A DNA stretch of 57,180 bases, taken from an uncultured bacterium. GTDB taxonomy: Bacteria > Patescibacteriota > Minisyncoccia > Phycocordibacterales > UBA6065. Each line of letters starts with the position of its first letter. The first letter of the stretch is position 1. A program made the translations under genes and the position numbers. Positions 15,224 to 45,296 of this stretch are shown in pieces. The notes beneath the pieces are model-generated. The model worked only from the letters and a program-made list of their open reading frames with translations. It searched no databases and was not told where the DNA came from. The DNA lies in NCBI GenBank assembly GCA_903842365.1, contig CAIMLU010000018.1:1-57180 (forward strand). The letters are read 5' to 3'.

Positions 15224-15263
15224 CTAAAAACACCTGAAATATTATAATTTCAGGTGTTTTTAG
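15224..15263. terminator. bidirectional terminator between convergent genes
   Basis: ctaaaaacacctgaaat / tttcaggtgtttttag, a 16-17 bp inverted repeat with A/T runs on both sides. Confidence 0.72.
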
Positions 15264-15271
15264 TTAATTGT

Positions 15272-16531
15272 TTATGATCTGTTTTGTCTTTTTAAGATGA
15301 AGAAGATTGAGATTGTGAGCTGTAATGCACTAGATGTTATTTTGGCAAATATCATTCCCCAAAGACCAAATAATAATATTAGAATGATCTGTAGAATTGT
15401 TTGGAATATTGGCAAGCCAATGTTTAATAGATACATTTCTTTTTTTAATTTCTGTGAAAAGAGTATTGCACTGGTAATGTAAGATGCTGAGAATATAAGT
15501 GAAATTGAATAGACTTGTGTAAAAATAACCGCATCAAGGTATTTTGGAAATACAAGACGAAACAGTGTTGGTGCAATAAAGATATAAGCAAGGCAGACAA
15601 GTGAGGAGGCTAGTGTTATTAATCCAATTTTTCTCCAGAGTAAGCTTTTGATTTCACTGTGATTCCTTGTTGATAGTTTTGGCAGAGCGACACTTCCTAT
15701 ATTTTTTGCAAAACCACCTATTTTATCAGGAAGGTTTGATGCAAGGGCATATACAGCAAGAGCTGCGGGTCCTAAAAACATGAAGACAAAGGCGTTGTCT
15801 AGTTGACCAACTATCCCTCCAAATACGTTCATGAGGCTCATTTTTTTTCCGTATTCAAGGGTATCAGGTTCTTCGGTGTTGTTTGGTGGGTAGCATCTGA
15901 TTGTTTTCCAGTAGAAGTATATTGTTGCAATAGTGTTGGAGACGATGTTTATGGTTGCTAATAAGAGAGCGTCCTTAAGGAATGTTATACCAATAAATAT
16001 AGATACATAGTAAAAAAGAGCGACACCAATAGAATAGAAAAAATTTAACCTAAATAATCTTTTCCCTATCAAAAACGCATTGTAGGTATTAAAAGCAGCA
16101 AGAGTTGGTGTCGCAATGCTAATAACAAGTAATCCACCACCAACCGTTGCGTCCCCATCTAAGAAAGATTTTAGTGCCCAAATAAGAGAAATACAGAAGG
16201 GGAGCACCATCCATTTGAGTTGGGTTTTAACAGATGTTCTTAGGGATCCTTCATGTCCTCGGGCAACTGCGCGTGTAATCGCATTATTCATTCCGGTGAG
16301 ACAGAAAAATCCAACAATTGAAGAAAGTGAAAGAATGTATTGATATTGCCCGTACGTCTCTTTGGGAAGGAGGTTGGCAAATGTTATTGAGAGTAGGAAG
16401 CCTAAAGTTGCAGTGATAAATGTGTGGCCACTCATCCAAAAATTACTTGTGATAAGGTATACCATATCGGTCTTCGTATATTTTTCAGTCGATCGGAGAA
16501 GCCAGATTATTCTGTGTTTGAGTTGTTCCAT
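15272..16531 (-). CDS. polysaccharide/oligosaccharide flippase (Wzx / MOP superfamily)
   Basis: 419 aa with about 12-14 predicted TM helices, in a glycan-cluster context. Confidence 0.72.
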   Translation of the reverse strand: MEQLKHRIIWLLRSTEKYTKTDMVYLITSNFWMSGHTFITATLGFLLSITFANLLPKETYGQYQYILSLSSIVGFFCLTGMNNAITRAVARGHEGSLRTSVKTQLKWMVLPFCISLIWALKSFLDGDATVGGGLLVISIATPTLAAFNTYNAFLIGKRLFRLNFFYSIGVALFYYVSIFIGITFLKDALLLATINIVSNTIATIYFYWKTIRCYPPNNTEEPDTLEYGKKMSLMNVFGGIVGQLDNAFVFMFLGPAALAVYALASNLPDKIGGFAKNIGSVALPKLSTRNHSEIKSLLWRKIGLITLASSLVCLAYIFIAPTLFRLVFPKYLDAVIFTQVYSISLIFSASYITSAILFSQKLKKEMYLLNIGLPIFQTILQIILILLFGLWGMIFAKITSSALQLTISIFFILKRQNRS

Positions 16532-16708
16532 GTTGACCTATAATACTAATAGAGTTGTTTTCGCGCTAGACTTAGTTAATTTCAAACGACGAGTGATTCA
16601 TGTTAATCCCATATAAAGAAGGCTTCAGTAGTGTGTTTGGTGTGGGTTGTGTTAAATCGCTCATAATTATATGGTATAGTTCATCTCACAAGAACTATAG
16701 AAAAACCA

Positions 16709-19006
16709 ATGAAATCACTGCTCAAAAATATAATCCTCGTTTGTTTGTTTGCGTTACCATTTGTTGCGCTCTATGTAGCTAATAGCTCTTTCTTTCCTTA
16801 TATAACAGGTAAGAACTTCCTTTTTAGGATGTTGGTTGAGGTTGCTTTTGCTGCATGGATTCCACTTATGTTGAGGTTTCGTGAATTTCGTCCAAAGAAA
16901 TCAATCATATTGTGGGGATTCCTTGGTTTTGTGGTAACAATGCTTATTTCGGCAATCCTTGCAGTTAATCCGGAAAAGGCTATTTGGTCGAATTTTGAAC
17001 GCATGGAAGGATATATAACCCTTATCCACCTTTTTGCTCTTTACCTCGTTGCTTCTTCAGTTGTTACAAAACTACAAATTTGGGAGCGTTTCTTTGATGC
17101 GACACTTATTGCTGGGGTGTTTGTTGCTGTTAGTGCTTTTACAAAGACAACTAATTGGGATCGTATTGATGGACCGCTTGGTAATGCAACCTATTTTGCT
17201 GCAGTTATGCTTTTCTGTCTCTTTTTTGCTTTATATATGATTGTCCGTCGATTGAGAGAGGGTAAGACGTGGTTTTTGTACCTGTATGTTCCAGCGATTA
17301 TCACGTTTTTAGTCGGTCTTTATTATGCCGGTACTCGCGGAACAATACTGGGTTTCATTGGTGGTCTTGGTATAACTGCTTTGATTCTTGCTTTTATGGA
17401 AAAGAAGGCGCCCGCATTAAAACTTGTTGCCCGTATTGCAATCGTTATCGGCGTTGTCGGTATTCTCGGTTTTATTGCTATTAAAGATACGTCATTTGTA
17501 CGAAGTTCTCCTGTTATGGTTAGGTTCTCGTCTATTTCTGCGCAGGATAACACAACAAAAGCGCGTTTTATGGTGTGGGGTGAGGCATTGCAAGGATTTA
17601 AAGAGCGTCCTTTGTTTGGTTGGGGACAAGAAAACTTTAACTACGTGTTTAACAAATATTACAATCCTGGAATGTATGGTCAGGAACAATGGTTTGATCG
17701 AACACACAACGTTGTTTTGGACTGGCTTGTAACTGGTGGAATCTTTGGTCTTGCTGGGTATCTCTTTTTATTCGGTTCGTCACTTTGGTTTTTGTTTCGT
17801 GGAAAAGTACCTTTTGAAGCAGAACAATCGAAAAAGATCTTTTCCACTGATAATAATACCGAGCAGTTCATTGTCGAAAAATCGATCTTTATTGGTTTAT
17901 TTGTTGCGTACTTTATACACAACCTCTTTGTGTTCGACAACATCACGAGTTGGATTCCGTTCATTATGCTTGTTTCATTTATTAGCGCGTTGTGGGTGAA
18001 GGGTGATACGTTTGCAAACTCTTCAGAATTAGAAACTTCTGACTCTTTTACACAAAGTGTCGTTATTCCAGGGGTAATCGTTGTATTTGTTTTTGTTGCC
18101 TACTTTTCGGTGTGGAAGGGTGCAGTTGCGGCCCAAACCCTTGTTCAAGCAATGCGTTACGGTCAAGATGTTCCTAATTCAAAGGGTGAAGTCGTACAGC
18201 GTGCCGATATTGGTAAAACCTTTGATGCTTTTAAGAAAGTTATTGCTTTGAATACGTTCGCAAATTCCGAGGCGCGTGAATACCTTGTTCAAGCCGTATC
18301 TATCGTTGAATCACGTGGAAAAATAGATGAACGTGTTGCATTTAGAGAGTTTGCTCGTGATCAGATGAAAAAACAAATCGCGGAAACACCAAATGATGCG
18401 CGTTATCACATGTTCGCAGCATCACTCTCGAGTGCATATGGTCAGTTTGATGACGCTGAAAAATCACTCAAACGAGCAATTGAACTTTCACCTCGTAAAC
18501 AATCACTTTTGTACCAATTAGCTCAAGTGTACCTTCAAGAAAAGAAATATGATGATGCGGTTGCTGTGTACAAAGAGGCGTATCTTGCATATCCAATCAA
18601 TGTGACTGCTATGGAATATTATGCAGCCGGACTTGTTTTTGCGGGACGTGTTGCGGAATCTGATTCATTTATTGATGAAAATAAAAATGTGTTCAGTAGT
18701 CAGGGTGTTGAAGTGGTGTCGGTTGGGGGTAAATCATACCTTCTTGGTGAAAAAATCCTCGCTGTCTATGTTGAAAAAGGTCTCGTCGATAAAGTAGATG
18801 CAGCACTCCGTGCAGGTATAAGTGTCACAAAAGATGGTAATAAGGCCGTGCTGTATTACAAAAAACTTGTTGGCACATATATGAAAGTAAATAAGAATGA
18901 TAAAGCCGCATCTGTGGTTCAGGAATTGATTCAAGCCTTTCCAAACAATCCAGAGAATGCAATGTGGAAGCAAGGTCTCGCGGAGCTTCGTTCAATCAAG
19001 AAATAG
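16709..19006 (+). CDS. O-antigen ligase/polymerase-like (Wzy_C) membrane protein fused to a C-terminal TPR domain
   Basis: 765 aa. The N-terminal ~430 aa are polytopic with a GTRGTILGFIGG loop region. The C-terminal ~300 aa are soluble with TPR-like repeats (AEKSLKRAIELSPRKQSLLYQLAQVYLQEKKYDDAVAVYKEA). Confidence 0.72.
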   Translation: MKSLLKNIILVCLFALPFVALYVANSSFFPYITGKNFLFRMLVEVAFAAWIPLMLRFREFRPKKSIILWGFLGFVVTMLISAILAVNPEKAIWSNFERMEGYITLIHLFALYLVASSVVTKLQIWERFFDATLIAGVFVAVSAFTKTTNWDRIDGPLGNATYFAAVMLFCLFFALYMIVRRLREGKTWFLYLYVPAIITFLVGLYYAGTRGTILGFIGGLGITALILAFMEKKAPALKLVARIAIVIGVVGILGFIAIKDTSFVRSSPVMVRFSSISAQDNTTKARFMVWGEALQGFKERPLFGWGQENFNYVFNKYYNPGMYGQEQWFDRTHNVVLDWLVTGGIFGLAGYLFLFGSSLWFLFRGKVPFEAEQSKKIFSTDNNTEQFIVEKSIFIGLFVAYFIHNLFVFDNITSWIPFIMLVSFISALWVKGDTFANSSELETSDSFTQSVVIPGVIVVFVFVAYFSVWKGAVAAQTLVQAMRYGQDVPNSKGEVVQRADIGKTFDAFKKVIALNTFANSEAREYLVQAVSIVESRGKIDERVAFREFARDQMKKQIAETPNDARYHMFAASLSSAYGQFDDAEKSLKRAIELSPRKQSLLYQLAQVYLQEKKYDDAVAVYKEAYLAYPINVTAMEYYAAGLVFAGRVAESDSFIDENKNVFSSQGVEVVSVGGKSYLLGEKILAVYVEKGLVDKVDAALRAGISVTKDGNKAVLYYKKLVGTYMKVNKNDKAASVVQELIQAFPNNPENAMWKQGLAELRSIKK

Positions 19007-33201: not shown

Positions 33202-33297
33202 GTGTGGAAGTAATCTAACAGAAAAAGCTTTTGGAGGCAATTGGTTGTAAAACGTACAACAAACAACCCACAACAAACAACTTTCAGGAGAGGGGAA

Positions 33298-33559
33298 GGG
33301 TGGGAATCGGTCATAGATAATTCACTCGTCAGACACTCGTGAATTTCCGCGACCCCTCCCTACAGGAGCTGTACACCTTTTGGGTTGAGTACAATCTCAA
33401 AAGGTCTTGCAAAAGCTCCAAGTATTCGCTTTTTCACCTCACGCCCGAATTCTGGTGAATTCGGACTACGCTTCGCTCCGTGCGTTCCGGCTTTCGATTC
33501 CCACCCCCGACACCTATATACAAGACGACCCATGCTCTCGCATAGGTCGTCTTTCCATG
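33298..33559 (-). ncRNA. tRNA-3'-linked structured element, copy E5 (unclassified, longer variant)
   Basis: Read on the minus strand. A 21-nt continuous antisense to the tRNA T-loop, T-stem and acceptor 3' strand lies at 33493-33513 (versus 33559-33579). CGGAG core. ACCA-loop hairpin at 33445-33464. Direct copy gggtgggaatcg at 33298-33309. Confidence 0.45.
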
Positions 33560-33675: not shown

Positions 33676-35166
33676 ATGGGCTCAATCGTGTATACTAATA
33701 CGACAATGATTTCGAGACGATCAAGGACGGTTCTTTTACTATTTGTAGCAATATTTATTGCTCTTGTTCCTGTCGTCTCTGTGTTCGCAGATAAGACTAT
33801 TTTTTATCCAAGTGTCTGTGATGGTGATTGGCGCAAACCCGAAGAAGCAACCAAATCATTCAGCGTTGAAAAGAGTGATGATATCGATTCGTCAAACAGT
33901 GCTGAATCAAATGGTGTTGGTTCTCGCATTGTTTGTTCACATTTTTCGGATGCAGCACTCTCTGATTTAAGACCTATCTCAGTAAAACTTGAGCTCTCTC
34001 TTCGCCCAATTGGTGAGGGAAATACAGAGGCATCATCAACTATCTCTCGGCTTTTGAGCGATGTGACTGCGCATGCTTTTGCGGATGAAATCACACCATT
34101 AGGATTAGAAGGTGGCGTATCTCAAGTCGCAATAACAGAACCTATTTCAACAACACAGGAGAATGCCGTGGAAAATGTAACGCCTTCCGTTGTTGATCAA
34201 TCAACAGCAACCACATCAACCGTTGAGGAGGTGATTGTCCATGAGGTATCAACAACCTCGATTGATGCTGTGTCTACAAGCACTCCTGATGAGCATTTTG
34301 TTCCAGTAGAAGAAATAAAAGAAGCAACTTCAACTGAGGTCGGGTTGGCAACAACGACTGTAGAAGGTCAAATTGCATCCCACCCCGATATTGAGGCTCA
34401 GATCTCTTTTGATGAAGGTGCATCGTGGAACTTTATTGGCGCTGCTACGATTACAAAACCAGAACGTCTCACTTTCGACGTCCCTCTTTCACATTTTGAG
34501 ACAGGGGAAGATCTTTCCCGTGTATCGATTCGTGTTATAAAAACAGCCGGTACATCCGAAGTCCTTTTTGATTCAAGCGCCCTTTCGATTGGATTTGCAA
34601 ATCTCGAAGGCGATGCACGATCGGTTGTAACACGAAATTTGGAATACATGACACCTGATTTAGCAAACAACACAATCGTTTCTATGATAAACCTGTCGAG
34701 GTATAGCATTATGGGTACAACTGATTCAAGTGGTTCTGGATCACTTTGGGTTTATGATGATCAGGCATCACCTGCAACATCAACCTTTAGAATTGCCTCA
34801 TCAACTACTTTTTCTACAGGATTTTCAGTTGCAATTAAGGACGGTATTATTTTTTGGCTTACTGACAGCAAGACCGTGTATGGGTTTAGGTTGAGTGATG
34901 GGCGATTCCTCATCCCGCTTTCGCATGATGTGCTTGAAACAGGTGAAGTTAATTTCTCATTCTTTGAAACGAAATGGAAGGTAATATCACGTGGGGGAAG
35001 TATCTTTTTTTCGACGCTCGAATCTGGCGAGCTGGCAGGGGATGATGACGGAGTTCTTCGTGAATCTTTTTATCATAAAAATATCGAACCCAATTTAACT
35101 GTGGAGGCAAAGACTGATATGGAACGGTTTGGTGTAACGGACGACACTGTCCCTCCTGAAAGATGA
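33676..35166 (+). CDS. secreted/anchored hypothetical protein (first gene of the surface operon)
   Basis: 496 aa. Signal or anchor is MISRRSRTVLLLFVAIFIALVPVVSVFA (alternative start ATG at 33706). Contains an acidic, T/S/E-rich linker. No homology recognised. Confidence 0.65.
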   Translation: MGSIVYTNTTMISRRSRTVLLLFVAIFIALVPVVSVFADKTIFYPSVCDGDWRKPEEATKSFSVEKSDDIDSSNSAESNGVGSRIVCSHFSDAALSDLRPISVKLELSLRPIGEGNTEASSTISRLLSDVTAHAFADEITPLGLEGGVSQVAITEPISTTQENAVENVTPSVVDQSTATTSTVEEVIVHEVSTTSIDAVSTSTPDEHFVPVEEIKEATSTEVGLATTTVEGQIASHPDIEAQISFDEGASWNFIGAATITKPERLTFDVPLSHFETGEDLSRVSIRVIKTAGTSEVLFDSSALSIGFANLEGDARSVVTRNLEYMTPDLANNTIVSMINLSRYSIMGTTDSSGSGSLWVYDDQASPATSTFRIASSTTFSTGFSVAIKDGIIFWLTDSKTVYGFRLSDGRFLIPLSHDVLETGEVNFSFFETKWKVISRGGSIFFSTLESGELAGDDDGVLRESFYHKNIEPNLTVEAKTDMERFGVTDDTVPPER

Positions 35167-38100
35167 TTATGAGTATTCAACGTTTTATCCAAAAGACACT
35201 CTCGTGCTTACTTGTTGCAATGCTTGTTCTTGCTTCAGTTTTTTCTGATGCTTTTTTTATTGTTCCTCATGCAGATGCTGCCTTAAATCCAACACAAAGA
35301 GATTACGCGTTGACTATAGGGCCATCTATTGGTTCCACAGCGGCAAACTACGTTTATAGTACTTTTTTTAATCCTATTGGTTCAGGTACGTACTTTTTAA
35401 TAAAGCGTCTCAAGGTTAATTCAATTGCACTTGGTGCTGCAACCTTTCAAGATCTTGATGTGAGGCGAATTACAAATACATCGGGAGGGACGCAAGTGCT
35501 CGCGGCAAATATTCCAAAGAAAAATACAGCGTCATTAGATAGTGTTGCGGATGTACGGTCTAATCTTGGTACAACAGGCGTAACTTTTGTTGGATCGACT
35601 GATTCGAGGATTATTTCAACGGTAGCAGCAGCGGCAGCTGGTGTTTCGTATGGAAAAATGGAAAAGAATTTTGATGATTCTGAAAAACTTATCCTTGCTC
35701 CTGGTGAGGGTATAGCTCTCTACCAAACGGCTGCGGGTAGTGCAAACCAAGATATCAGTTTAACCGTTGAGTGGACAGAAAGCGTCGTAGCACCAACTTC
35801 ACAGAACGAATATTCGTTGACGTACACTCGCGTTGCGAATGCTGCAGGGGTGAATTATGTGTACGATTCTTTTTTTAATCCAGGTTCATCTGGAAATGCT
35901 GTTGTTGTAAAAAGTATTCGCGCTGACGTTGTTGGTATTGGCACTGCAACTTATTCAAATAACGTTTATCTTCAAAAAATAAGCGCTGCGTCAGCAGGTA
36001 CGCAAATTGCGACTACGAATATACCAAAGAAAAACAGTCTATCTGCAAACTCTACCAGTGAGGCACGTTACCTGGGTGTAACCGCGACTCTTTTAAGCAC
36101 GAGCACAAACTCTTCGTACATACGCATTATTCCTCCTGGACTCGCCAACCAAGCAGCGTCGCGTGAGGTTGTGTTTGGTGTAAATGATGAAAAAATAATT
36201 TTGAAGCCGAACGAAGGGCTCGCCCTTGTTTCATCCGCAGCGGGTAGTGCAAACCAAGTTGTTAAATTTACAATCGAGTGGCAGGAAGTTCCCCAGGGAT
36301 CCGCTTCTGGAGCACAGGGTGGATACTTCTATACGTTTCCTAGGGTTTCTTTCACCCCAACTGCGGGACAGGCATATAATTCTTTTTTCAATCCTTTGGG
36401 ATCAGGTAAGCACGTAACAATTAAGAGGATATATGCATCCGCAACCACCTGGGCTGGTGCTGCATACAATCAAATCAGTGTACGTAGAACAACGGCTGCA
36501 TCTGGTGGTAATGTAATACCGGTAACTAATATTACAAAGAAGCACGTTGATACTGGCAACTCGAGTATGCAATTTAGTACAAATGCTCCCACGATAACGT
36601 GGGCGGGTACAGCTGCTATGCGCATTGCAGCCATGACTGGTCCTGGAGCGCCGGGTCAGCGCAATGGTGAATTAGAGGTTTATTTTGGTGATAATGAACA
36701 GCTCGTCCTTGCCCCAGGTGAAGGTATTGCGCTCTATAGTGAAGTCACAGGTAGCGCAAACCAGATGGTGCTTTTTTCCCTTGAGTGGACCGAGAGCGTT
36801 TCTTTGCCGGTAGCACAAGGTGAATATGTCGCATCAATTGGGAACGTGTCTGGCTCAACTGTTTCGGGATACAATTACGCATCTTTTTTTAATCCTATTG
36901 GTTCAGGGAAGACATCGATTATTAAACGTGTTGGCTTTTCTGTTGATGCTGTAAACACTGCTCGCTATGTTCCAATAACTCTTCAGAGGATTACAGCGGT
37001 TTCTGGTGGAACACTCATTGCTACAACTAATTTAACTAAAAAAAATAACACATCATCGATTTCATTGATGACGGTGCGAAGTACTGGCGTGACGGCAACT
37101 CTCGCAGGGAACACTGATTCACGTATCATGAGTGCGATTACACCAGGCACAATATCAAGTGTTACAAACGACCAGCGTTCAGGAAAAATGGAATACATTT
37201 TTTCAACAGATGAACAGCTCGTTCTTGCTCCAGGTGAAGGTGTTACTTTGCGGCAAGAAGCTGCTGGGGACGCTGATTTTAGGGTTCGTTTAAATATTGA
37301 ATGGGCTGAAACAGCAATAGTTCCAAGCCCTAAAGGTGAACTTATTGCTTCGTTCGGTTCAATGACGGGTAGTTTGACCTCGGGATATGTTTACAGCTCT
37401 TTTTTAAATCCAGTCGCATCTGGCAAGGTGTATCTTGTTAATCGAATTGGTCTCCATGCCACACGTGTTGGCGCTGCAACATCACCAGTGTTTCAGCAGG
37501 TGGTAATACGTAGGATTACAAGCGCGTCAGGAGGTACCCTTGTTGTTCCCGCAAATATTCCTAAAAAAATATCAACAACAGCAGCGAGCGGTGCTGATCT
37601 CCGTAGAGGTTCAACGGTGACTTATTCAGGGGTTACTGGTTCACGTATCTTCAGTTTGTCTGCACCAGCGACAGTGGGCGGAACGAGTAGTGGGCATCAT
37701 TCTCTTGTTCCATCTGGTGATCAGATTATCCTTAAACCAGGCGAAGGAGTCGCGCTTTACCAAGAGAGTGCTGCAGGTGATACAAACGTAAGATTTTTTA
37801 TGACAGTTGGATGGAGTGAAATGGCGATATCTCAATCCGCGTATAGATTTTTCAGTAATACAGATAATCTTGCTGCATCTACGCCTCTTGCTCTTGCAAA
37901 TACCTTGGCAATAGCGCCAAGCATAAATGCACCTTTTAGGTTGCGCATGGTTCTTGACGTTAATGGTTCTAGTTTGGTTCAAAATCAAGACTCATTCAAA
38001 CTTCAATTTTCCTCAAGGGTTGGTTCATGTGACGCTTCCTTTGTAGGTGAGGCGTATACTGATGTGACAAATGCATCGGTTATTGCATGGAATGATAATG

Positions 38101-39152
38101 CATCCCTTGTGACTGGTGCTCAGGTTGCTCCAACATCTACAGATCCGCAGAGTGGTACAAAAACAAGGGTGTACGAGACGTATCAGGAGGCAAATTCTTT
38201 TACAAACGCATCATCAACATCAATTTATGATGGGCAAAGCGGTGTGTGGGATTTTTCTCTTGTAGATAATGGTGCACCACGTAACACTTCGTACTGTTTT
38301 AGAGTTGTTCGAAATGATGGCAGCACCCTTGAATCGTATTCAATTGTCCCAGAAATTATTACGGCACCAGCTGCGAATACACTTCCAGTAGCTTCTGGAA
38401 TTTCGATAGACTCTGGTGCAGCAAGTATTAACTTAATTGAAGGAACAACCAAGGCAGTTACATGTTCTGGTACCGTGACTGATAACAATGGTTTTGCTGA
38501 TATCCAATCAGTGACTGGAGATTTGTATCGCACCAGCCTCGGGACTTCTTCGCCGCTTGATATTAACAACCACTATCGCGTTTCTGGTAACACTCAATGC
38601 GTACCTTCTGCCGGTTCGGGATCAAGCGAAACGTATTCATGTCTTTTTCCAGTGTGGTTCCACGCTGAGCCGACCGATGTTGGTTCTCCTAATAGTGCTG
38701 ATACGTGGTCATGTTCAATGACACCTGTTGATAGTGTTGCAACAGGAACCCCTGCGAGTGGTTCGATAGAAATGGCATCGCTCTATGCGATTGATGTTAC
38801 GCCTTCGATTTCATACGGGACGCTCTCACCGAGCACAAATACTGGCTCCCTAAATGCGACAACCACGGTTACAAACACGGGTAACACAACAACAAACCTT
38901 GCGCTTTCTGGTGCAAATATGACAAGCGGTGGAGGTGCTATTGCGGTCGGTAGTCAAAAATATGCTTCATCCAACTTTGTTTATACATCTGGTGGTGTCG
39001 CGCTTACCACGGTCCCGACGAATCTTCCACTGGGACTTGCAAAAAAAGTTATTGCAACAACAACCTCTCCAATATATTGGGGGATTGGTGTGCCGAATGG
39101 TACACGCACTGGTGCGTATTCAGGTTCAATAACATTTACAGCTGGACCTTAA
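35163..39152 (+). CDS. giant secreted repeat protein (5 x ~170-aa module, a jelly-roll-like domain, and 2 Ig-like C-terminal domains)
   Basis: 1329 aa with a signal peptide ending PHADA. Five internal repeats. The C-terminal ~260 aa are paralogous to the next gene. ATGA overlap with the upstream gene. Confidence 0.85.
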   Translation: MIMSIQRFIQKTLSCLLVAMLVLASVFSDAFFIVPHADAALNPTQRDYALTIGPSIGSTAANYVYSTFFNPIGSGTYFLIKRLKVNSIALGAATFQDLDVRRITNTSGGTQVLAANIPKKNTASLDSVADVRSNLGTTGVTFVGSTDSRIISTVAAAAAGVSYGKMEKNFDDSEKLILAPGEGIALYQTAAGSANQDISLTVEWTESVVAPTSQNEYSLTYTRVANAAGVNYVYDSFFNPGSSGNAVVVKSIRADVVGIGTATYSNNVYLQKISAASAGTQIATTNIPKKNSLSANSTSEARYLGVTATLLSTSTNSSYIRIIPPGLANQAASREVVFGVNDEKIILKPNEGLALVSSAAGSANQVVKFTIEWQEVPQGSASGAQGGYFYTFPRVSFTPTAGQAYNSFFNPLGSGKHVTIKRIYASATTWAGAAYNQISVRRTTAASGGNVIPVTNITKKHVDTGNSSMQFSTNAPTITWAGTAAMRIAAMTGPGAPGQRNGELEVYFGDNEQLVLAPGEGIALYSEVTGSANQMVLFSLEWTESVSLPVAQGEYVASIGNVSGSTVSGYNYASFFNPIGSGKTSIIKRVGFSVDAVNTARYVPITLQRITAVSGGTLIATTNLTKKNNTSSISLMTVRSTGVTATLAGNTDSRIMSAITPGTISSVTNDQRSGKMEYIFSTDEQLVLAPGEGVTLRQEAAGDADFRVRLNIEWAETAIVPSPKGELIASFGSMTGSLTSGYVYSSFLNPVASGKVYLVNRIGLHATRVGAATSPVFQQVVIRRITSASGGTLVVPANIPKKISTTAASGADLRRGSTVTYSGVTGSRIFSLSAPATVGGTSSGHHSLVPSGDQIILKPGEGVALYQESAAGDTNVRFFMTVGWSEMAISQSAYRFFSNTDNLAASTPLALANTLAIAPSINAPFRLRMVLDVNGSSLVQNQDSFKLQFSSRVGSCDASFVGEAYTDVTNASVIAWNDNASLVTGAQVAPTSTDPQSGTKTRVYETYQEANSFTNASSTSIYDGQSGVWDFSLVDNGAPRNTSYCFRVVRNDGSTLESYSIVPEIITAPAANTLPVASGISIDSGAASINLIEGTTKAVTCSGTVTDNNGFADIQSVTGDLYRTSLGTSSPLDINNHYRVSGNTQCVPSAGSGSSETYSCLFPVWFHAEPTDVGSPNSADTWSCSMTPVDSVATGTPASGSIEMASLYAIDVTPSISYGTLSPSTNTGSLNATTTVTNTGNTTTNLALSGANMTSGGGAIAVGSQKYASSNFVYTSGGVALTTVPTNLPLGLAKKVIATTTSPIYWGIGVPNGTRTGAYSGSITFTAGP
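35280..37832 (+). repeat. five tandem divergent ~510-nt coding repeats (residues 40-890 of the giant protein)
   Basis: Each unit has Y-x-Y-[SD]-S-F-[FL]-N-P-x-G-S-G-K...[IV]-K-R, then V-R-R-I-T-x-x-S-G-G-T, N-I-[PT]-K-K, L-x-L-x-P-G-E-G-[IV]-A-L, G-S-A-N-Q and [IV]-E-W-x-E. Unit boundaries fall at about residues 40, 212, 381, 550, 722 and 891. Confidence 0.85.
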
Positions 39153-39222
39153 AATAAAATCCATCTGTGGATAACACAATTGATAGTAGATATGATAAAA
39201 TAGAAACGTAATTAATAAATAA

Positions 39223-40134
39223 ATGACTAAAGTACTTTTTAAATCTCGCATTGAAGCAATCATCGCAAGCTCAATTATACTTGTTGGTGTTATTGCCTTT
39301 GTTGCAAATGTCGCAGCTGACGCGGTCTCAACATCGGTCACGGTATCAAACGCTGCACCTGTGGTGAGCGGTGTGACCTTTAATAGTGGAGCAGCAATAA
39401 CGTTAACCGAGAACACCACTCGAACTGTTTACGCAACTTCCACCGTAACTGACGCAAACGGTTGTTCAACAATCGCTGCTGTTTCAGCTGACTTCCATAG
39501 AAACGGTATTGCAACGAGCTCTTGTAACACTATTGGTCAGGCAAACAATAGTAACTGTTACCCAGCGGTGACATGTACAGTTGTTTCTGGAACCTGTACT
39601 GGAGGATCTGACACTGCTGCTGATTATGTCTGTTCTACTGCTCTTCAGTACTACGCTGATCCTACAGACTCAGGAACATACGCTGCTCAGACATGGACTG
39701 CAGACATTGCAGCTGGTGACGGTGTTGCAACCACAAGTGGCTCTGGACTTGCCGAAGTTAATACTCTCAAGGCTCTTGATGTCACAGCTTCTATGAACTA
39801 CGGAACTCTTGCTGCCGGATCAAACACCGCTGCAGTGAACTCAACAACAACTGTTACAAATACAGGTAACAGTACAATGGATCCTCTTATCTCAGGTACT
39901 GATATGACAAGTGGTATTAACACATTGACTGTTGGAAACCAAAAATACGCCTCATCAACATTTACGTATGCAACAGGTGGTACCGCTCTCTCAACAACCC
40001 CTACAGCGGCTGCGATCAATCTCGCAAAACCAACAGGTGCAGCTGTTACAGGTAATGTGTCATGGGGTATCAACGTGCCTAACGGAACTGTTCCAGGTAG
40101 TTACAGCGGAACAAACACCTTTACAGCAAACTAA
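39223..40134 (+). CDS. secreted surface subunit, paralog of the C-terminus of the giant protein
   Basis: 303 aa with an N-terminal hydrophobic anchor or signal. Colinear with residues ~1072-1329 of the upstream protein (NAAPVVSGVTFNSGAA.. versus NTLPVASGISIDSGAA..; TTTVTNTGN; GNQKYASS; WGINVPNGTVPGSYSGTNTFTA versus WGIGVPNGTRTGAYSGSITFTA). Confidence 0.8.
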   Translation: MTKVLFKSRIEAIIASSIILVGVIAFVANVAADAVSTSVTVSNAAPVVSGVTFNSGAAITLTENTTRTVYATSTVTDANGCSTIAAVSADFHRNGIATSSCNTIGQANNSNCYPAVTCTVVSGTCTGGSDTAADYVCSTALQYYADPTDSGTYAAQTWTADIAAGDGVATTSGSGLAEVNTLKALDVTASMNYGTLAAGSNTAAVNSTTTVTNTGNSTMDPLISGTDMTSGINTLTVGNQKYASSTFTYATGGTALSTTPTAAAINLAKPTGAAVTGNVSWGINVPNGTVPGSYSGTNTFTAN

Positions 40135-40188
40135 TCTCTTAGAGGTTTCAAGGTTCCGATTCTTGAAACGTAATGTAATTTCCCTCAC

Positions 40189-41100
40189 GTGAAAAAAACC
40201 AACTTTCTATTTGTTATCGGAGTCATTCTATCCGCTTGTGTGCTTCCTCAAAGCGCACAAGCGGGTTTTGGCGTTTCTCCAGGCCTTGTTTCAGAACAGA
40301 ACCTTGTTCCCGGAGCACGCCTTGAACGTACGATTTATCTTGTTCAGGCTGATAATAATCAATCACTCGATGCTAAGGCGTCGGTGGATAGTGGATCAGC
40401 AAAGGAATTAAAGAACTGGGTTTCATTTGTACCGGGATCTTCATTTACTATTCCTGGCGGTGTGCAACAGTATCCATTAAAGATCGTTATGGTGATTCCA
40501 AGCGATGCAGAACTCGGTAAGTATACTGGTTCAGTTACAATAAACACGGTTCCACCAAAATCAGGTGAACAGATAACGGTTGCACTTGCCGCAAGGGTAA
40601 ATATAGACCTGTCGATCGGCAACAATGTTGTGTCTGATTTCTCGGTTCGTTCAATGAAAATTCTTGATGTCATTGAATCAGAGAACCCAAGGGTTGTATT
40701 TGATATAGCGAATATTGGAAATGTTCCGGTTGCTCCCGACGGAGCATCGTTCGAACTCTTGAATAAGTATGGTGATTTGAGGCTCGGGTACGCTGATGGT
40801 GATTTTACTGAAAAAGTTTCTTCATTTAGTGATAAAAAAATAACAGTAGATTTTCCTGTTGATTTTAAGTTAAGTGAAGGTGAATATTGGGGATACGTTA
40901 AGGTGTATAAGCAGGGAAAGGTAGTCGCTGAACTTAAGACTATCTTCAACGTAAATCCTGGATCATTCTTTGTGCGATATAGCACATCGATTGTTGTTGC
41001 TTCATTACTCGTCTTGATACTTGGGGTATTCGTTGTAATGCGAAACCGTAGAATCTCTCGGCTTAAATTAGAGCAGGGAAATGCAACACCTGTCGTTTAA
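40189..41100 (+). CDS. cell-surface protein with two beta-sandwich-like domains and a C-terminal TM anchor (DUF916/CARDB-NEW3-like)
   Basis: Signal peptide ends SAQA. GFGVSPG start, FDIANIGNVPVAP (CARDB-like N-x-G-N), and a C-terminal helix IVVASLLVLILGVFVVM followed by RNRR. Confidence 0.6.
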   Translation: MKKTNFLFVIGVILSACVLPQSAQAGFGVSPGLVSEQNLVPGARLERTIYLVQADNNQSLDAKASVDSGSAKELKNWVSFVPGSSFTIPGGVQQYPLKIVMVIPSDAELGKYTGSVTINTVPPKSGEQITVALAARVNIDLSIGNNVVSDFSVRSMKILDVIESENPRVVFDIANIGNVPVAPDGASFELLNKYGDLRLGYADGDFTEKVSSFSDKKITVDFPVDFKLSEGEYWGYVKVYKQGKVVAELKTIFNVNPGSFFVRYSTSIVVASLLVLILGVFVVMRNRRISRLKLEQGNATPVV

Positions 41101-42094
41101 GTATTGTGTGTTTATTGTGGCATTAATGGCGCTCTTTTTTCCAAGCGCCCTTTTTGCTACGTCAGTTGTTTCAGTTTCGTTAACGGTGCTTCCTTCTACG
41201 GCATGTTCGGACGGTATTGATAATGACGGTGATTTGAAGATAGACTATCCAAATGATCCTGGTTGTTTGTCGTCAATAAGTGTGTCTGAAGTTGACCCCA
41301 TTGTTTCTCCACCGAGCGGTGGTGGGGGAGGGGGAGGTGGGTATTCATCTTCAAATAGTGTGTCACCAATACTTGGCACAGGGAGGGCTGTTATTTTAGG
41401 GACATCATTTCCTAACGCTCAAGTCGTAGCGCTTGTTGATGGGGTGCAAAAATCAACAAGCACCACGCTAAGTAACGGTTCGTTTTCTATATCAGTCCAT
41501 AATATAGAACCAGGACTAAGGTCTTTTTCGGTGTATGCAATAGATGCTCTAAAGGTAAAAACTGCTTCTGTTTCAGTTTCAACAACTGTGAACGAAAATA
41601 CTGTGACAAACATAAGCGGTATTGTGTTGTCGCCGACGTTATCTGCCGATAAAACAGAGGTAAAAAAGGGGGGTACAGTACTTCTTACCGGTGTTACTGC
41701 TCCATTGCAGACGGTCTTTATTGAAATAAAATCAAATACAATATCAAAGACCATAACAACTCTTTCAAATAAGACTGGTGCATATTCTCTATCCTTAGAC
41801 ACAGGGACACTTGATTTGGGTTCCTATGCAATAAAGACGTACTGCGTAGATGGTAATAAACATGGACCATACAGTAGGAGTGTTGGTGTTGTTGTTGGCT
41901 TGAAAAATCTTTTCGCATTTACTTGTGGAAGTCGTGCTGATGTCAACGGTGATTGCAAAGTTAACCTCGTTGATTTTTCAATGGTTGCATATTGGTACAA
42001 GCGAAACAATCCACCGATAAGTGTTGATTTGAATGGGGATGGTAAGATAAGTTTAGCTGATTTTTCGATATTAGCATTTAATTGGACTGGGTAA
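41081..42094 (+). CDS. secreted dockerin-domain protein with Ig-like domains
   Basis: Signal peptide. CSDGIDNDGDLKIDYPNDPGC Asp-rich Cys-bounded motif. G8 linker. Two Ig-like segments. C-terminal duplicated Ca-binding dockerin repeats DVNGDCKVNLVDFS and DLNGDGKISLADFS. Confidence 0.72.
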   Translation: MQHLSFKYCVFIVALMALFFPSALFATSVVSVSLTVLPSTACSDGIDNDGDLKIDYPNDPGCLSSISVSEVDPIVSPPSGGGGGGGGYSSSNSVSPILGTGRAVILGTSFPNAQVVALVDGVQKSTSTTLSNGSFSISVHNIEPGLRSFSVYAIDALKVKTASVSVSTTVNENTVTNISGIVLSPTLSADKTEVKKGGTVLLTGVTAPLQTVFIEIKSNTISKTITTLSNKTGAYSLSLDTGTLDLGSYAIKTYCVDGNKHGPYSRSVGVVVGLKNLFAFTCGSRADVNGDCKVNLVDFSMVAYWYKRNNPPISVDLNGDGKISLADFSILAFNWTG

Positions 42095-42690
42095 TGAAGC
42101 GCATATTTTTTATTATTGGAATTGGACTCGTGTTACCTCTGCAGGGTGTCTTTGCTGCTGATGCGTCTTTTTCATTTCGTATTCCCGAAATGGTAATGGT
42201 TGGGATTCCCTCAAGACTTACGCTCTTACTTGATCCTCATGGTGATTCAATAAATGCTGTATCAGGATCTGTTGAAATCGTGGGATCAGCAAGTATCAGG
42301 CGAGTCAGTACAAGCTCATCAATTATTCCACTGTGGGTTTCTGGTCCAATACAATCTTCATCATCAATTGAATATGAAGGAATTATTCCTGGTGGTTTTG
42401 ATGGTGTGTACAGTGTCTCGGATCAGGATTTGAGGCCAGGATCAATGCTCTCATTTGAGATTATTACGAATGATGCTACCCCTGTAATCATCAGATCTCA
42501 CAATACTATTTATTTAAATGATGGAAAGGGAATTGGAATCCCTACACCTGATCAGGCATCTATTATTAACCCAATATTTCCACAGAGCGATAGTTCGAAT
42601 TTATCGGTAGTACGTAATTCAATTTTTGCATGTGGTATAATTCTCTCATTATGGTTTCTTCGAATTTTTTTCAAAAGGCGAAATATGTAA
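42094..42690 (+). CDS. cohesin-like domain protein with a C-terminal TM anchor
   Basis: Signal MKRIFFIIGIGLVLPLQGVFA. The beta-rich domain has a pattern similar to the cohesin of the next gene. C-terminal helix IFACGIILSLWFLRIFF. TAATG overlap with the upstream gene (the track start at 42082 is TTG). Confidence 0.55.
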   Translation: MKRIFFIIGIGLVLPLQGVFAADASFSFRIPEMVMVGIPSRLTLLLDPHGDSINAVSGSVEIVGSASIRRVSTSSSIIPLWVSGPIQSSSSIEYEGIIPGGFDGVYSVSDQDLRPGSMLSFEIITNDATPVIIRSHNTIYLNDGKGIGIPTPDQASIINPIFPQSDSSNLSVVRNSIFACGIILSLWFLRIFFKRRNM

Positions 42691-44414
42691 TTGTCCTTTG
42701 TGCTGTGTGTCTTTTTTTGCCACATTATCTTTTCGCACAATCGATTTCAATTACACCGAACTCTGCTAATCAGCCTGTTGGGAAATCTTTTACCCTAAGA
42801 GTCGCTGTTTCAAGTCCTAATCAAGCTGTAAATGCCTTTGCGGGAACAGTTTCATTTCCTAAAGACAAGCTCCAAGTCGTTTCTCTTTCAAAGACGGATT
42901 CGATTGTAAGTGTTTGGGTTGCTGACCCAATTTTTTCAAATGAAGAAGGTTTGGTGTCTTTTGAGGGCGTTGCACTTAATCCAGGATTCATAGGGGTATC
43001 TGGAAAGATTTTGAGCATAAATTTTAAATCAATTGCGCGTGGGGACGCAACGGTTACGGTCACAAATGCATCCGTTCTTGCAAACGATGGTACGGGTACT
43101 AATGTTTTGAATGGAATATCACCATCGATGATCACTATTGGTGGTGACACTGCATCTACGTTGGTTCCTAAAAAAGTAACAGTTGATCAGGTCAAAATAA
43201 GTTCTATCACTCACCCTGATGAACGAAAATGGTACCCAACTGGATCTGCAAAGTTTTCCTGGATTCCTCCTTTAGGTGCAACAAAATCTTTTGTATCTCT
43301 TGATAGGGATGTATCAGCTCAACCAAAAAAGATATATGACTCAGTGCTCTCAGTAAAAGAAATAGCAGGAATCGAAGATGGAACATGGTATTTTCATCTT
43401 GCTCTGGGAACGAAAGATTCAAAGGGTTCTGTGTCTACATATCGTATCAATGTTGACACTGTTGCTCCCTCAAGCTTTTCTGTTAAAGAAATTCCACGAA
43501 AAGATACAGCAAATCCGAAAGTTCAATTTGCATTCAGTGCCACAGATGAAACCTCGGGTATCGATAAGTATGATATTTCTATTGATAGTGGTTCTGTTGT
43601 GGGTTGGCGTGATCCTGGTGATGGTGTTTTTGAAACCGAAGCACTTTCTCCTGGTCGACACACTCTTTCGGTTAAGGCGTACGATGAGGCTGGAAACTAT
43701 ACTCCTGCTACCACGGATTTTTATGTGAGTGGGGTCGATGCTCCTACGATTATTTCATTTACTGACAGGGTTGCTAGTTCTGATACGGTGTCGGTATCTG
43801 GTCGCACCTACCCAAACGCATCTGTCGGTCTCTACATGAACGTTTTGGGTAAGGAATATGAATTCGCACGAACAACGAGTGGTGATGACGGTTTGTTTAA
43901 GGTGTCTTGGAAGCCAAACCCTATTTCAAGTGACACTATTGTTCTCGATTCAAAAAACCCAACATCACTGAAGGATGGTATTTTTGACGCATGGGTTGAT
44001 GCGGCTGTTGGTGGTGTGAAGACATATCCATCGCGTCGAGTTCAGGTTGTTGTAGATGCTCCTTTCTCAGTTGCTCTATCAAAATCCTTGTTTGAAGTCT
44101 CGATGTATCTTATGCCAGCAATTGCTATGATGGTTGTTGCTATACTAATTGCTCTGTATGGTACGCGAAAGGTGCTTTCCTTTAAAAAGGCAGTGGCAGT
44201 TGAGGCATCTGAAGCTGAGGATATTCTTCATAAGTCATTTAACATCTTACGTGAAGATATTGCTGAATATCGTGCTGCGGTTGAAAATGCAAAGACGAGG
44301 CGTCGAATCACAAAAGTTGAATCAGAACTTGTTGCTAGGTTGAATGATAATTTAGCTCAGGCCGAACGGGCGATTAAAAAAGAAGTTAAAGATATAGAGC
44401 ATATTACTGAATAA
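42630..44414 (+). CDS. cohesin-domain, Ig/fn3-like surface protein with a TM anchor and a cytoplasmic coiled-coil tail
   Basis: 594 aa with a signal peptide (alternative start ATG at 42651). The cohesin-like segment runs ISITPNSANQPVGKSFTLRVAVSS...GDATVTVTNASVLANDGTG. TM helix is MYLMPAIAMMVVAILIALYG. The C-terminal ~85 aa are charged and helical. Confidence 0.75.
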   Translation: MWYNSLIMVSSNFFQKAKYVIVLCAVCLFLPHYLFAQSISITPNSANQPVGKSFTLRVAVSSPNQAVNAFAGTVSFPKDKLQVVSLSKTDSIVSVWVADPIFSNEEGLVSFEGVALNPGFIGVSGKILSINFKSIARGDATVTVTNASVLANDGTGTNVLNGISPSMITIGGDTASTLVPKKVTVDQVKISSITHPDERKWYPTGSAKFSWIPPLGATKSFVSLDRDVSAQPKKIYDSVLSVKEIAGIEDGTWYFHLALGTKDSKGSVSTYRINVDTVAPSSFSVKEIPRKDTANPKVQFAFSATDETSGIDKYDISIDSGSVVGWRDPGDGVFETEALSPGRHTLSVKAYDEAGNYTPATTDFYVSGVDAPTIISFTDRVASSDTVSVSGRTYPNASVGLYMNVLGKEYEFARTTSGDDGLFKVSWKPNPISSDTIVLDSKNPTSLKDGIFDAWVDAAVGGVKTYPSRRVQVVVDAPFSVALSKSLFEVSMYLMPAIAMMVVAILIALYGTRKVLSFKKAVAVEASEAEDILHKSFNILREDIAEYRAAVENAKTRRRITKVESELVARLNDNLAQAERAIKKEVKDIEHITE

Positions 44415-44423
44415 TCGATTTCT

Positions 44424-45296
44424 ATGGACGATAGTACGAGAAAACGAATAACAGAAATTGAAGCCCTTATGCTTGAGGGTGATTTTTGGTCTGATAAAGA
44501 TAAAGCCCAGGTGATAATGCGTGAGCTTGCTACGCTTAAAGCAAAAGCATCCGAGGTCGATAAATATGAACGGGGGAATGCAATCATGACCATTTTCTCG
44601 GGTGCGGGAGGTGATGATGCAGAAGACTTTACTCGAATGTTATTGTTGATGTATGAACGTTTTATTTCAAAACGGGGTTGGACTTTCCAGTACGTAAGTC
44701 GTGCTGAAAATACTCAGGGTGGATACAGAAATGTAACTATTGAGGTTGAGGGTCGGGGTGCGTATGGCACACTAAAGAATGAGTCTGGTGTCCATAGACT
44801 AGTCCGCATATCACCGTTTAATGCAAAAAAATTAAGGCAGACGTCATTTTCACTTGTTGAGGTGGTTCCAAAATTTGATAAGATGGTATCGATTGATATC
44901 CCGCCTGAAGAAATTAGAATTGAGTTTTCTCGATCAGGTGGCCCTGGGGGACAGAATGTGAATAAACGTGAAACTGCAGTGCGTTTGGTTCATATCCCAA
45001 CAAAGATAGCAGCACATGCTGATACTGAACGTTCACAGGCACAGAATCGTGATCGTGCGATGGATATTCTTAAGGCTCGCATTTACAAATTTCGCGAAGA
45101 TGAGCGCAAATCAAAAGAAGCAGGGGTGTATATATCAAAGACGACTGATGTAGAGTGGGGAAATCAAATTAGATCATACGTGCTTCATCCATACAAAATG
45201 GTAAAGGATCACCGAACTAGTGTTGAGACATCAAACGTTGAGGCTGTTCTCGGTGGTGATATTGAAAGTTTCATCGATGCTGAGAAAACCTTGTAA
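44424..45296 (+). CDS. prfB: peptide chain release factor 2 (short N-terminus, no programmed frameshift)
   Basis: SPF tripeptide (RISPFNA) and GGQ (SGGPGGQNVNK). 290 aa. The upstream frame is closed by the TAA at 44412-44414. Confidence 0.9.
   Translation: MDDSTRKRITEIEALMLEGDFWSDKDKAQVIMRELATLKAKASEVDKYERGNAIMTIFSGAGGDDAEDFTRMLLLMYERFISKRGWTFQYVSRAENTQGGYRNVTIEVEGRGAYGTLKNESGVHRLVRISPFNAKKLRQTSFSLVEVVPKFDKMVSIDIPPEEIRIEFSRSGGPGGQNVNKRETAVRLVHIPTKIAAHADTERSQAQNRDRAMDILKARIYKFREDERKSKEAGVYISKTTDVEWGNQIRSYVLHPYKMVKDHRTSVETSNVEAVLGGDIESFIDAEKTL

Follow-up and report, generated by a model that had tools for sequence, protein, structure and literature searches.

The WxL/WxLIP (Csc) cell-surface clusters found in Lactobacillales and Bacillales (Siezen 2006, PMC1534035; Hassan & Williamson 2023, PMC9772566, PMC10599100) are defined by a minimum of one WxLIP plus two WxL proteins within four genes, and their small and large proteins have a C-terminal WxL domain in common, with variable N-terminal domains on the large one (PMC10599100). 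Here, we describe an operon of seven genes, g1 to g7, on the plus strand (positions 33676-44414) of a 57,180-nucleotide stretch of DNA from an uncultured bacterium of the Patescibacteriota (contig CAIMLU010000018.1; hereafter, the window). Among known systems, the WxL/WxLIP cluster of Firmicutes comes closest; here, the subunits have no detectable WxL domain, a cohesin-dockerin base is added, and the head belongs to a new protein family predicted to contain five jelly rolls. We think it rather probable that the operon encodes a multi-protein complex on the outside of the cell, built as a modular chassis with a cargo; the cell itself is probably of the Paceibacteria type. How members of the Candidate Phyla Radiation (CPR, Patescibacteria) attach to and recognize other cells is the central question for this large and mostly uncultured radiation. 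To our knowledge, the factors implicated in CPR attachment so far are limited to type IV pili and a few adhesins.

We scanned one genome per GTDB species and obtained 60 related loci, in which open reading frames (ORFs) were called and then searched iteratively with the seven window proteins; many of these loci are truncated by contig ends. The order g1, g2, one to four small proteins, g4, g5, g6-like gene, g7 was found in approximately 25 of the 60 loci, which come from diverse CPR lineages, so that the synteny in CPR relatives proposed as a check in the preliminary description was indeed observed. Individually, g2 was found in 44 loci, g1 in 37, g4 in 33, g5 in 30, and g6/g7 in 27, and the small-subunit genes occur in one to four tandem copies per locus, with a single one (g3) in the window. 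Relatives of g2 come from bins labeled Parcubacteria/Paceibacterota, Moran-, Azam-, Kerfeld-, Gracili-, Doudna-, and Kaiserbacteria, and environmental Saccharibacteria; some others carry archaeal labels (Aenigm-, Woese-, Pacearchaeota, and others). One of the latter, a "Pacearchaeota" locus (L059), has a bacterial class-A RNase P RNA (2171-2538) beside its g1 homolog, and an "Aenigmatarchaeota" locus (L048) is 99.4% identical over its full length (6.4 kb) to part of a 302-kb Patescibacteria contig (L007:11366-17738); the flanks of three more (L032, L037, and L047) were uninformative on origin. As judged from these sequences, the archaeal labels in the g2 family are at least partly misbinning. 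Given the RNase P RNA of L059 and the identity of L048, which both turned out to be bacterial, we claim only a CPR-wide distribution and do not accept an archaeal (DPANN) presence from the labels of metagenome-assembled genomes.

The gene that ties the operon most directly to WxL clusters is g4 (40189-41100, 303 aa, GTG start). The window protein alone matched nothing in Pfam or in a single-sequence PDB search. At the family level, PF06030 (WxLIP_PGBD, formerly DUF916) matched 8 of 32 g4 orthologs (best E-value 1.1e-8), and the g4 family profile matched EfmWxLIP1 of Enterococcus faecium in the PDB (9i25_C and 9i1y_A; E 3.6e-6) over 243 positions covering both immunoglobulin (Ig)-like domains. 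As references, six WxLIP and nine WxL sequences were fetched from plasmid records of Enterococcus, Bacillus, and Levilactobacillus by a search with the PDB-aligned EfmWxLIP1 sequence, and the EfmWxLIP1 PDB chain served as the seventh WxLIP. Against these seven WxLIPs, hhalign scored the CPR g4 family at 98.5% (E 4e-15, 300 columns) and the window g4 subfamily alone at 93.1% (E 3e-7, 220 columns over both domains). The ectodomain (approximately 40264-40962) comprises a DUF916/PGBD-like and a DUF3324/HBD-like domain, preceded by a putative signal peptide with the site AQA↓G and followed by a C-terminal transmembrane (TM) helix (40984-41040) in the hydropathy scan. On these sequence grounds, g4 is a true homolog of the Firmicutes WxLIP with the full WxLIP architecture (DUF916, DUF3324, and TM helix). 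It had been described earlier as a "DUF916/CARDB-like" anchored protein; the family and profile searches, including the EfmWxLIP1 match, bear out the first half of this name, and none of the searches supports the second. The motif NQIDKxxxYFDLK, which is conserved close to the PGBD N-terminus of WxLIPs, is absent from g4, where the aligned stretch reads ...VSEQ----NLVPGARLERT, and a word-index search with the g4-family profile, aimed at Firmicutes WxLIPs, returned close CPR relatives only.

Several side observations concern g4 and its references. LysM is present in 5 of the 32 g4 orthologs, and in some lineages (Moranbacteria; L019, approximately 14931-16898, and L003-L005), an enlarged g4 homolog of 655 aa carries LysM and LytR_C domains as a peptidoglycan-binding module. 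An antisense ORF (40359-40985, minus strand, 208 aa) lies entirely within g4; it is ignored by the public gene call and shows no sign of being a gene. On pXO1-type plasmids (L071:1-8923 of Bacillus cereus and L072:546-6966 of B. anthracis pXO1), Tad/Flp pilus genes, namely cpaB, an AAA ATPase gene, and cpaF, are found immediately upstream of the WxL/WxLIP cluster, together with three tiny pilin-sized ORFs. The record CP069367.1 (L069; "Klebsiella pneumoniae" plasmid pSP4663_1) contains a frameshift-broken copy of E. faecium WxLIP1 with 75% identity and carries only 6 annotated features over 106 kb; the assembly appears to be mislabeled or contaminated.

The second WxL-like trait is a C-terminal module shared by a large and a small protein. 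The large protein, g2 (35163-39152, 1329 aa), begins with a putative signal peptide and five predicted jelly-roll repeats, continues through a variable middle region, and ends in a g3-like C-terminal module; in the small one, g3 (39223-40134, 303 aa), two beta-sandwich domains come after a signal-like helix (aa 9-29). The middle region of g2 (aa 889-1071; 37827-38375) varies by lineage and, according to precomputed Pfam annotations of the homologs, is replaced or extended elsewhere by LamG, RCC1, Fn3, or FG-GAP domains; homolog lengths range from 1019 to 2197 aa among the matches listed. The C-terminal module (aa 1072-1329; 38376-39152) is a paralog of the whole mature g3, as the preliminary description had proposed (g2 residues 1072-1327 versus g3 residues 43-302: 45% identity, E 1e-47). 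The same rule was found at 25 other loci: there, the C-terminus of the large protein (in most, approximately 168 aa) and the C-terminal domain of the small proteins encoded at that locus match with E-values from 1e-21 to 1e-49, most of them 1e-35 or better. The identity of the shared domain changes with the lineage: besides the window type (g3, two beta-sandwiches), there are 362-aa, 208-aa, and 224-aa types. The 362-aa and 208-aa types are related (hhalign 96.8%), and the 224-aa type stands apart in BLAST clustering. Neither BLAST clustering nor hhalign detected any similarity between the window type and the 362-aa or 208-aa types, and the homology of g3 to the small proteins of other loci was dropped for this reason. 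In sequence searches, g3 has 133 relatives with E <= 0.001, and none of the 120 listed carries a Pfam domain.

WxL-like clusters do occur in CPR and have already been annotated, through structure matches only, in the cultured Saccharibacterium Southlakia epibionticum ML1 (PMC10633639 supplement), where SEML1_0628 is a large protein with RCC1 propellers, SEML1_0627 (188 aa) has a "WxL domain-containing protein" as its best structural match and is assigned to the ECOD domain e6fjyB1, the CsuE-chain domain, and the adjacent SEML1_0626 is DUF916-like with two Ig domains. The main text of that study never mentions WxL (Wang et al. 2023, PMC10633639), and we found no paper that discusses WxL-like clusters in CPR; the link to the window cluster is suggestive and indirect.

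Small beta-sandwich subunits that recur on a larger protein are also what a pilus-like fibre assembled by donor-strand exchange would be made of. Here, g3-type subunits would polymerize, g2 would be the tip adhesin joined through its identical C-terminal module, g4, as a PapD-like Ig pair, would be the membrane-tethered chaperone or base, and g5 to g7 would be the basal anchor. The one to four tandem small-subunit copies across loci fit this, as does the fact that the large protein always bears the subunit domain of its own locus, which is the logic of the FimH and CsuE tip adhesins. Published AlphaFold2 (AF2) models show a WxLIP strand donated into WxL (PMC10599100), and the Southlakia small protein combines its CsuE-chain assignment with a resemblance to WxL proteins. 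The AF2 model of g3 (predicted local distance difference test score, pLDDT, 94; predicted template modeling score, pTM, 0.82) consists of an N-terminal helix and two beta-sandwich domains and retrieved CsuE (6fjy_B, rank 4) and CfaB pilins from the PDB with Foldseek; however, the template modeling (TM)-scores were low (0.2-0.37), and the matches were mostly generic tandem-Ig proteins. Nothing points to an incomplete fold or to an N-terminal donor strand, and the window has only one g3. Moreover, neither an usher nor a sortase was found in the cluster, nor was an LPXTG motif or a dedicated signal peptidase, and none of 36 small proteins matched the Pfam TasA/camelysin (PF12389-type) or SCPU families. 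We regard a fibre of this kind as unlikely, although it survives better than any of the other alternatives.

In the surface complex that we favor, the part facing outward would be the N-terminal head of g2. It is composed of five repeats of approximately 170 aa (aa 41-206, 207-375, 376-544, 545-716, and 717-888; 35283-37826) that are 36-44% identical to one another and have in common the motifs SFFNPxGSGK, RRITxxSGGT, IPKK, PGEG, and EWxE. Exactly five repeats were present in all 120 g2 homologs examined; relatives in CPR bins, typically of approximately 1090 aa, are 40-47% identical over the first ~870 residues, and no Pfam domain covers the five-repeat part of the family. In the AF2 model of the head (81 sequences, 891 aa; pLDDT 91.3, pTM 0.88), each repeat is predicted to be a jelly-roll beta-sandwich, and the high pTM of the five-domain chain indicates that the repeats are predicted to pack rigidly in a fixed arrangement. 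The invariant repeat number, rigid packing, and high conservation together suggest that the head may be a closed pseudo-pentamer. A Foldseek search of the PDB with the model matched the single-chain C1q head (5hkj), capsid jelly rolls of PRD1, STIV, and Faustovirus, PNGase F, and PHM; these matches fit single or paired jelly rolls, not the whole arrangement (whole-model TM-scores 0.1-0.3).

Single repeats of g2 also resemble phage proteins. The head sequence matches phrog_5335 (E 4.9e-10), and among viral models (BFVD), single repeats superpose on uncharacterized phage proteins of approximately 200-270 aa with root-mean-square deviations (rmsd) of 3-5 A and at most 25% identity; for example, a protein of Streptomyces phage Coruscant is 25% identical at an rmsd of 3.9. 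An exhaustive HMMER search of 1.84 billion representatives retrieved only 167 clusters with a g2 repeat (43 at E <= 1e-30), which comprise approximately 25 full-length five-repeat proteins, fragments, and approximately 100 single-domain proteins of 160-215 aa. The genes for two single-domain relatives of approximately 210 aa (L077:3549-4181 and L078:2213-2845) are surrounded by small, densely packed, co-directional genes in arrays that resemble phage genomes, one of these arrays having a Tad2-like gene, in agreement with the phrog_5335 and BFVD matches. A scan of viral contigs with the g2 repeat profile returned no relatives.

Directly upstream of g2 is g1 (33676-35166, 496 aa), which encodes a putatively exported protein of unassigned fold with a signal-like N-terminus, a Ser/Thr-rich linker, and a conserved C-terminal domain. 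Searches of Pfam, PHROG, and the PDB found no relatives of g1 (Pfam and PDB with 24 family members). In 37 loci, a g1 homolog immediately precedes the g2 homolog, and g1 is missing from variant clusters without the jelly-roll head; from this pattern, g1 appears to be a specific, dedicated partner of the five-jelly-roll protein.

The constancy of the head bears on another alternative, in which the operon would encode a structural part of the bacterium's own envelope, such as a wall-spanning scaffold or coat for the envelope or division, rather than a binding organ. A head with unusually high conservation (approximately 45% identity across CPR classes), an invariant number of repeats, and the conserved cytoplasmic tail of g7 (see below) would be expected of such a part, and the cluster recurs near prfB-ftsE-ftsX, which lie upstream of it in some of several other genomes and downstream in others. 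However, ftsEX is found on either side and in a few loci only, which fits shared backbone synteny; sister clusters swap the head for unrelated domains, unlike a core structural layer; LysM occurs in only a minority of g4 homologs; and Pfam and NCBIfam searches detected neither SLH or S-layer domains nor those of peptidoglycan enzymes in the seven proteins. An envelope part therefore seems improbable to us, more so than a fibre.

The remaining three genes encode the candidate base of the surface complex, and here the dockerin protein and two cohesin-like proteins of the preliminary description were recovered, the former directly and the latter at the family and profile level only. The 337-aa product of g5 (41081-42094) is putatively exported. 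It carries an acidic disulfide repeat and a Gly-rich linker, two Ig (Big_6-like) domains, and, at the C-terminus, a type I dockerin (41936-42073) that scored 31.3 bits for Dockerin_1 against a Pfam cut-off of 22.9. Direct reading of the dockerin gives two Ca-binding loop repeats, DVNGDCKVNLVD and DLNGDGKISLAD. Within the g5 family, 22 of 27 members have the dockerin (PF00404) and 23 of 27 have Big_6. The essential Southlakia dockerin protein SEML1_0315 was considered as a g5 ortholog and rejected, as it is a stand-alone gene.

The g6 product (42094-42690; 198 aa, or 202 aa from a TTG start at 42082) has a cohesin-like domain (approximately 42160-42543) and a C-terminal TM helix (approximately 42616-42672); it is shorter than its orthologs of approximately 320 aa and is without a ~120-aa domain found in most of them. 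The g7 product (42630-44414; 594 aa, or 587 aa from the ATG at 42651 used in the public gene call) has a cohesin-like domain (approximately 42735-43139), Ig domains that include a Big_13 (43452-43730; present in 19 of 21 orthologs), a TM helix (44097-44177), and a charged cytoplasmic tail of approximately 78 aa (44178-44411) that is conserved in the family alignment and is probably a coiled coil. Between g6 and g7, the N-terminal domains show weak similarity (E 1e-4). In the window, neither protein matched the Pfam cohesin family (PF00963), and single-sequence PDB searches gave nothing useful; among orthologs, PF00963 passed in 1 of 21 for g7 (2.7e-7) and 1 of 24 for g6 (0.003). The top PDB matches of a joint g6 and g7 N-terminal profile were six cohesin chains, 5aoz_A, 5m2o, 5m2s, 5g5d, 6kg8, and 6kgc, with 5aoz_A the best (1.7e-5).

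Dockerin and cohesin-like modules, together with a weak, sub-threshold resemblance of the g2 C-terminal module to the N-terminal domain of GH123, could point to a cellulosome-like assembly that degrades or binds polysaccharides through cohesin-dockerin pairs. However, no catalytic domain or carbohydrate-binding module (CBM) was found in the seven proteins or their orthologs, the single dockerin protein carries only Ig domains besides its dockerin, and the part of GH123 in question is itself a non-catalytic beta-sandwich, so that this alternative is effectively excluded.

ORF calling recovered the seven co-directional genes with all of the coordinates, overlaps, and gaps that had been described for them. 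The genes g1 and g2 overlap by ATGA (35163-35166), g3 is flanked by gaps of 70 nt before and 54 nt after, g4 and g5 overlap by 20 nt (41081-41100), g5 and g6 meet at TAATG (42092-42096), and g6 and g7 overlap by 40-61 nt depending on which g7 start is chosen; such overlaps are consistent with translational coupling. Promoter and terminator signals were not enriched relative to shuffled sequence. Of all domains in Pfam and NCBIfam, the dockerin alone passed the cut-off in the seven window proteins, and no enzyme domain was found in any of them, in agreement with the earlier view of an enzyme-free set of exported or anchored proteins. That view extends to an N-terminal signal or anchor on every product and a C-terminal TM helix on three, both of which were reproduced by a Kyte-Doolittle hydropathy scan: all seven products begin with a hydrophobic segment followed, by direct reading, by an A-x-A-like or small-x-small site (in order from g1 to g7, VFA↓D, ADA↓A, VAA↓D, AQA↓G, LFA↓T, VFA↓A, and LFA↓Q, that of g1 following aa 38), and C-terminal TM segments occur in g4 (aa 266-284), g6 (aa 179-197 of the 202-aa form), and g7 (aa 490-516) only. 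We infer Sec export of the seven products, with cleavage at their A-x-A sites. A regular-expression scan found no terminal LPXTG sorting signal in the seven proteins.

The operon lies directly downstream of genes for tRNA-Asp and tRNA-Met (both on the minus strand), and the nearest ORF upstream encodes a DEAD-box helicase; prfB, ftsE, and ftsX follow downstream, with prfB beginning 10 nt past the g7 stop. The G+C content of the operon (0.40-0.45) is the same as that of its flanks. The tRNA neighborhood had led to the proposal of accessory DNA, which we do not uphold: the flat composition and the prfB-ftsEX neighborhood, which recurs in several genomes, indicate the chromosomal backbone rather than an island beside tRNA genes, and the cluster is kept across CPR classes. 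The reading as unrelated secreted-protein genes brought together by chance, or as mobile accessory DNA, has only the adjoining tRNA genes in its favor and is effectively excluded, being the least probable of all the readings, since the gene order is conserved in approximately 25 loci of different lineages, the genes overlap as translationally coupled genes do, and there is neither a compositional break nor an integrase or transposase in the cluster or its immediate flanks. Two side observations concern these neighbors. At only 290 aa, the product of the release factor gene (44424-45296, with PCRF and RF-1 domains) is short for RF2. The 357-nt spacer between the tRNA-Asp and tRNA-Met genes (33202-33558) holds a sequence resembling the end of tRNA-Met, gggtgggaatcg, together with its complement; sequences of this type may be tRNA-fragment remnants.

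The exchange of heads provides the basis for reading the surface complex as chassis and cargo. A Paceibacterota locus (L079) encodes a large protein of 765 aa that has no jelly rolls and ends in a g3-type C-terminal module; g1 is absent, and the genes downstream are, in order, g3, g4, g5, g6, and a short g7-like gene. A Giovannonibacteria locus (L080) resembles it. As these variants keep g3 to g7 and swap the head, g3 to g7 appear to behave as a chassis for which g1 and the g2 head would be one of several cargoes. In the complex that we propose, g4 would sit in the membrane through its TM helix and, by analogy with WxLIP and WxL, would capture the shared C-terminal beta-sandwich module of both g2 and free g3, with a strand of its DUF916 domain completing the sandwich as modeled for the WxLIP-WxL pair. 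The dockerin of g5 would plug into the cohesin-like domains of the membrane-anchored g6 and g7, the Ig domains of this g5-g7 socket module would form a wall-spanning stalk, and the cytoplasmic tail of g7 would link the complex to the cell interior. All seven products would thereby join in one complex, with the g2 head facing outward as its functional part and g1 as the dedicated partner of the head. The head would most likely bind a conserved ligand on another cell or particle, in an attachment or recognition role, and a role in host attachment, which the preliminary description had proposed, is plausible.

Several results weigh against this reading. First, none of the 36 small or large-C-terminal proteins matched the Pfam WxL domain (PF13731), and hhalign found no similarity between the g3 C-terminal, 362-aa, or 208-aa types and nine real WxL domains (P 0.16-0.61). 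Likewise, the only W-x-[LI] match in each of g2 and g3 is WGI, and the C-terminal strand of both finishes with TFTA, without Trp-x-Leu; a phmmer search with one E. mundtii WxL protein did not find a WxL chain in the PDB. The small subunits were accordingly rejected as members of the WxL domain family at the sequence level (no PF13731 match, hhalign P > 0.1), and since the shared domain shows no profile similarity to WxL, the WxL analogy stands on g4 and the architecture. Second, the joint g6 and g7 profile matches cohesins over only ~55 residues. Third, the export of all seven proteins was called from hydropathy and from small-x-small motifs read by eye. Fourth, the head, at ~45% identity across CPR lineages, is unusually conserved for a host-specific adhesin. 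Finally, the one experimental hint points away from an attachment role: in S. epibionticum, SEML1_0625-0628 all scored as non-essential by transposon sequencing (Tn-seq), so that the WxL-like cluster there (SEML1_0626-0628, with another head) is dispensable for epibiotic growth, and disruption of SEML1_0625 gave a growth advantage (PMC10633639 supplement).

A more far-reaching version of the surface complex can be formulated, which we offer as speculation and consider doubtful. It would be a CPR-wide modular machine for surface display, with a WxLIP-type anchor, a cohesin-dockerin base, and exchangeable heads, the commonest of which would be a single-chain, closed pseudo-pentamer of phage-related jelly rolls accompanied by g1; it would serve as an organelle that recognizes and holds host cells, and it would be the older apparatus, with the WxL system of Firmicutes as its reduced offshoot or its sister. 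Independently of that version, the cluster offers surface proteins for testing that form a defined set with wide conservation, no family annotation existing for four of them, and it defines a new and highly conserved five-jelly-roll protein family with phage relatives.

Compared to known systems, each g2 repeat is predicted to be a jelly roll of the kind seen in C1q/TNF proteins and in viral proteins such as PRD1 P3 and the phage proteins of phrog_5335. In contrast to these, g2 fuses five copies in one chain instead of forming a trimer or a double jelly roll, its arrangement differs (whole-model TM-scores 0.16-0.30), and it has no collagen-like stalk. With donor-strand pili and fibres (archaic Csu, CFA/I, TasA, and archaeal bundling pili, PMC9245690), the cluster shares tandem small beta-sandwich subunits (g3 weakly matching CsuE and CfaB by Foldseek), a large protein that bears a subunit-like domain as a tip adhesin does, and a companion two-Ig protein (g4); however, no usher or equivalent platform domain was found in the operon or its orthologs, and unlike TasA fibres, the cluster has no SipW-type peptidase gene and no Pfam TasA or SCPU match. 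As in cohesin-dockerin systems, a type I dockerin with two Ca-binding repeats (g5) adjoins cell-anchored proteins with cohesin-like modules (g6 and g7), whereas g6 and g7 are anchored by a C-terminal TM helix and not by SLH domains or sortase, enzymes and CBMs are absent, and the cohesin likeness is weak (a Pfam match in one or two orthologs, a PDB match of ~55 residues), with the binding itself inferred.

The likeness to the Firmicutes WxL cluster is broader. It comprises a WxLIP protein with a signal peptide, DUF916 and DUF3324 Ig-like domains, and a C-terminal TM helix (g4), large and small exported proteins with a common C-terminal domain (g2 and g3), exchangeable N-terminal heads on the large protein, and the lack of enzymes. 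The differences are that the g2/g3 domain is not a detectable WxL domain and has no dual Trp-x-Leu, so that the two WxL proteins of the definition are not found; that, across CPR lineages, at least three or four sequence families with no relation to one another supply the shared domain; that no LPXTG partner is present here and g4 is without the conserved NQIDKxxxYFDLK motif; and that the CPR cluster has four extra conserved genes (g1, g5, g6, and g7). The preliminary statement that no characterized system has this composition thus no longer holds for the g2-g3-g4 core, which has the architecture of the Firmicutes WxL/WxLIP cluster (PMC10599100) with a WxLIP homolog in g4, and stands for the remainder. 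The hosts are CPR bacteria, beyond the reported host range of WxL, and the WxLIP anchor is thereby extended well outside Lactobacillales and Bacillales and linked to a cohesin-dockerin module.

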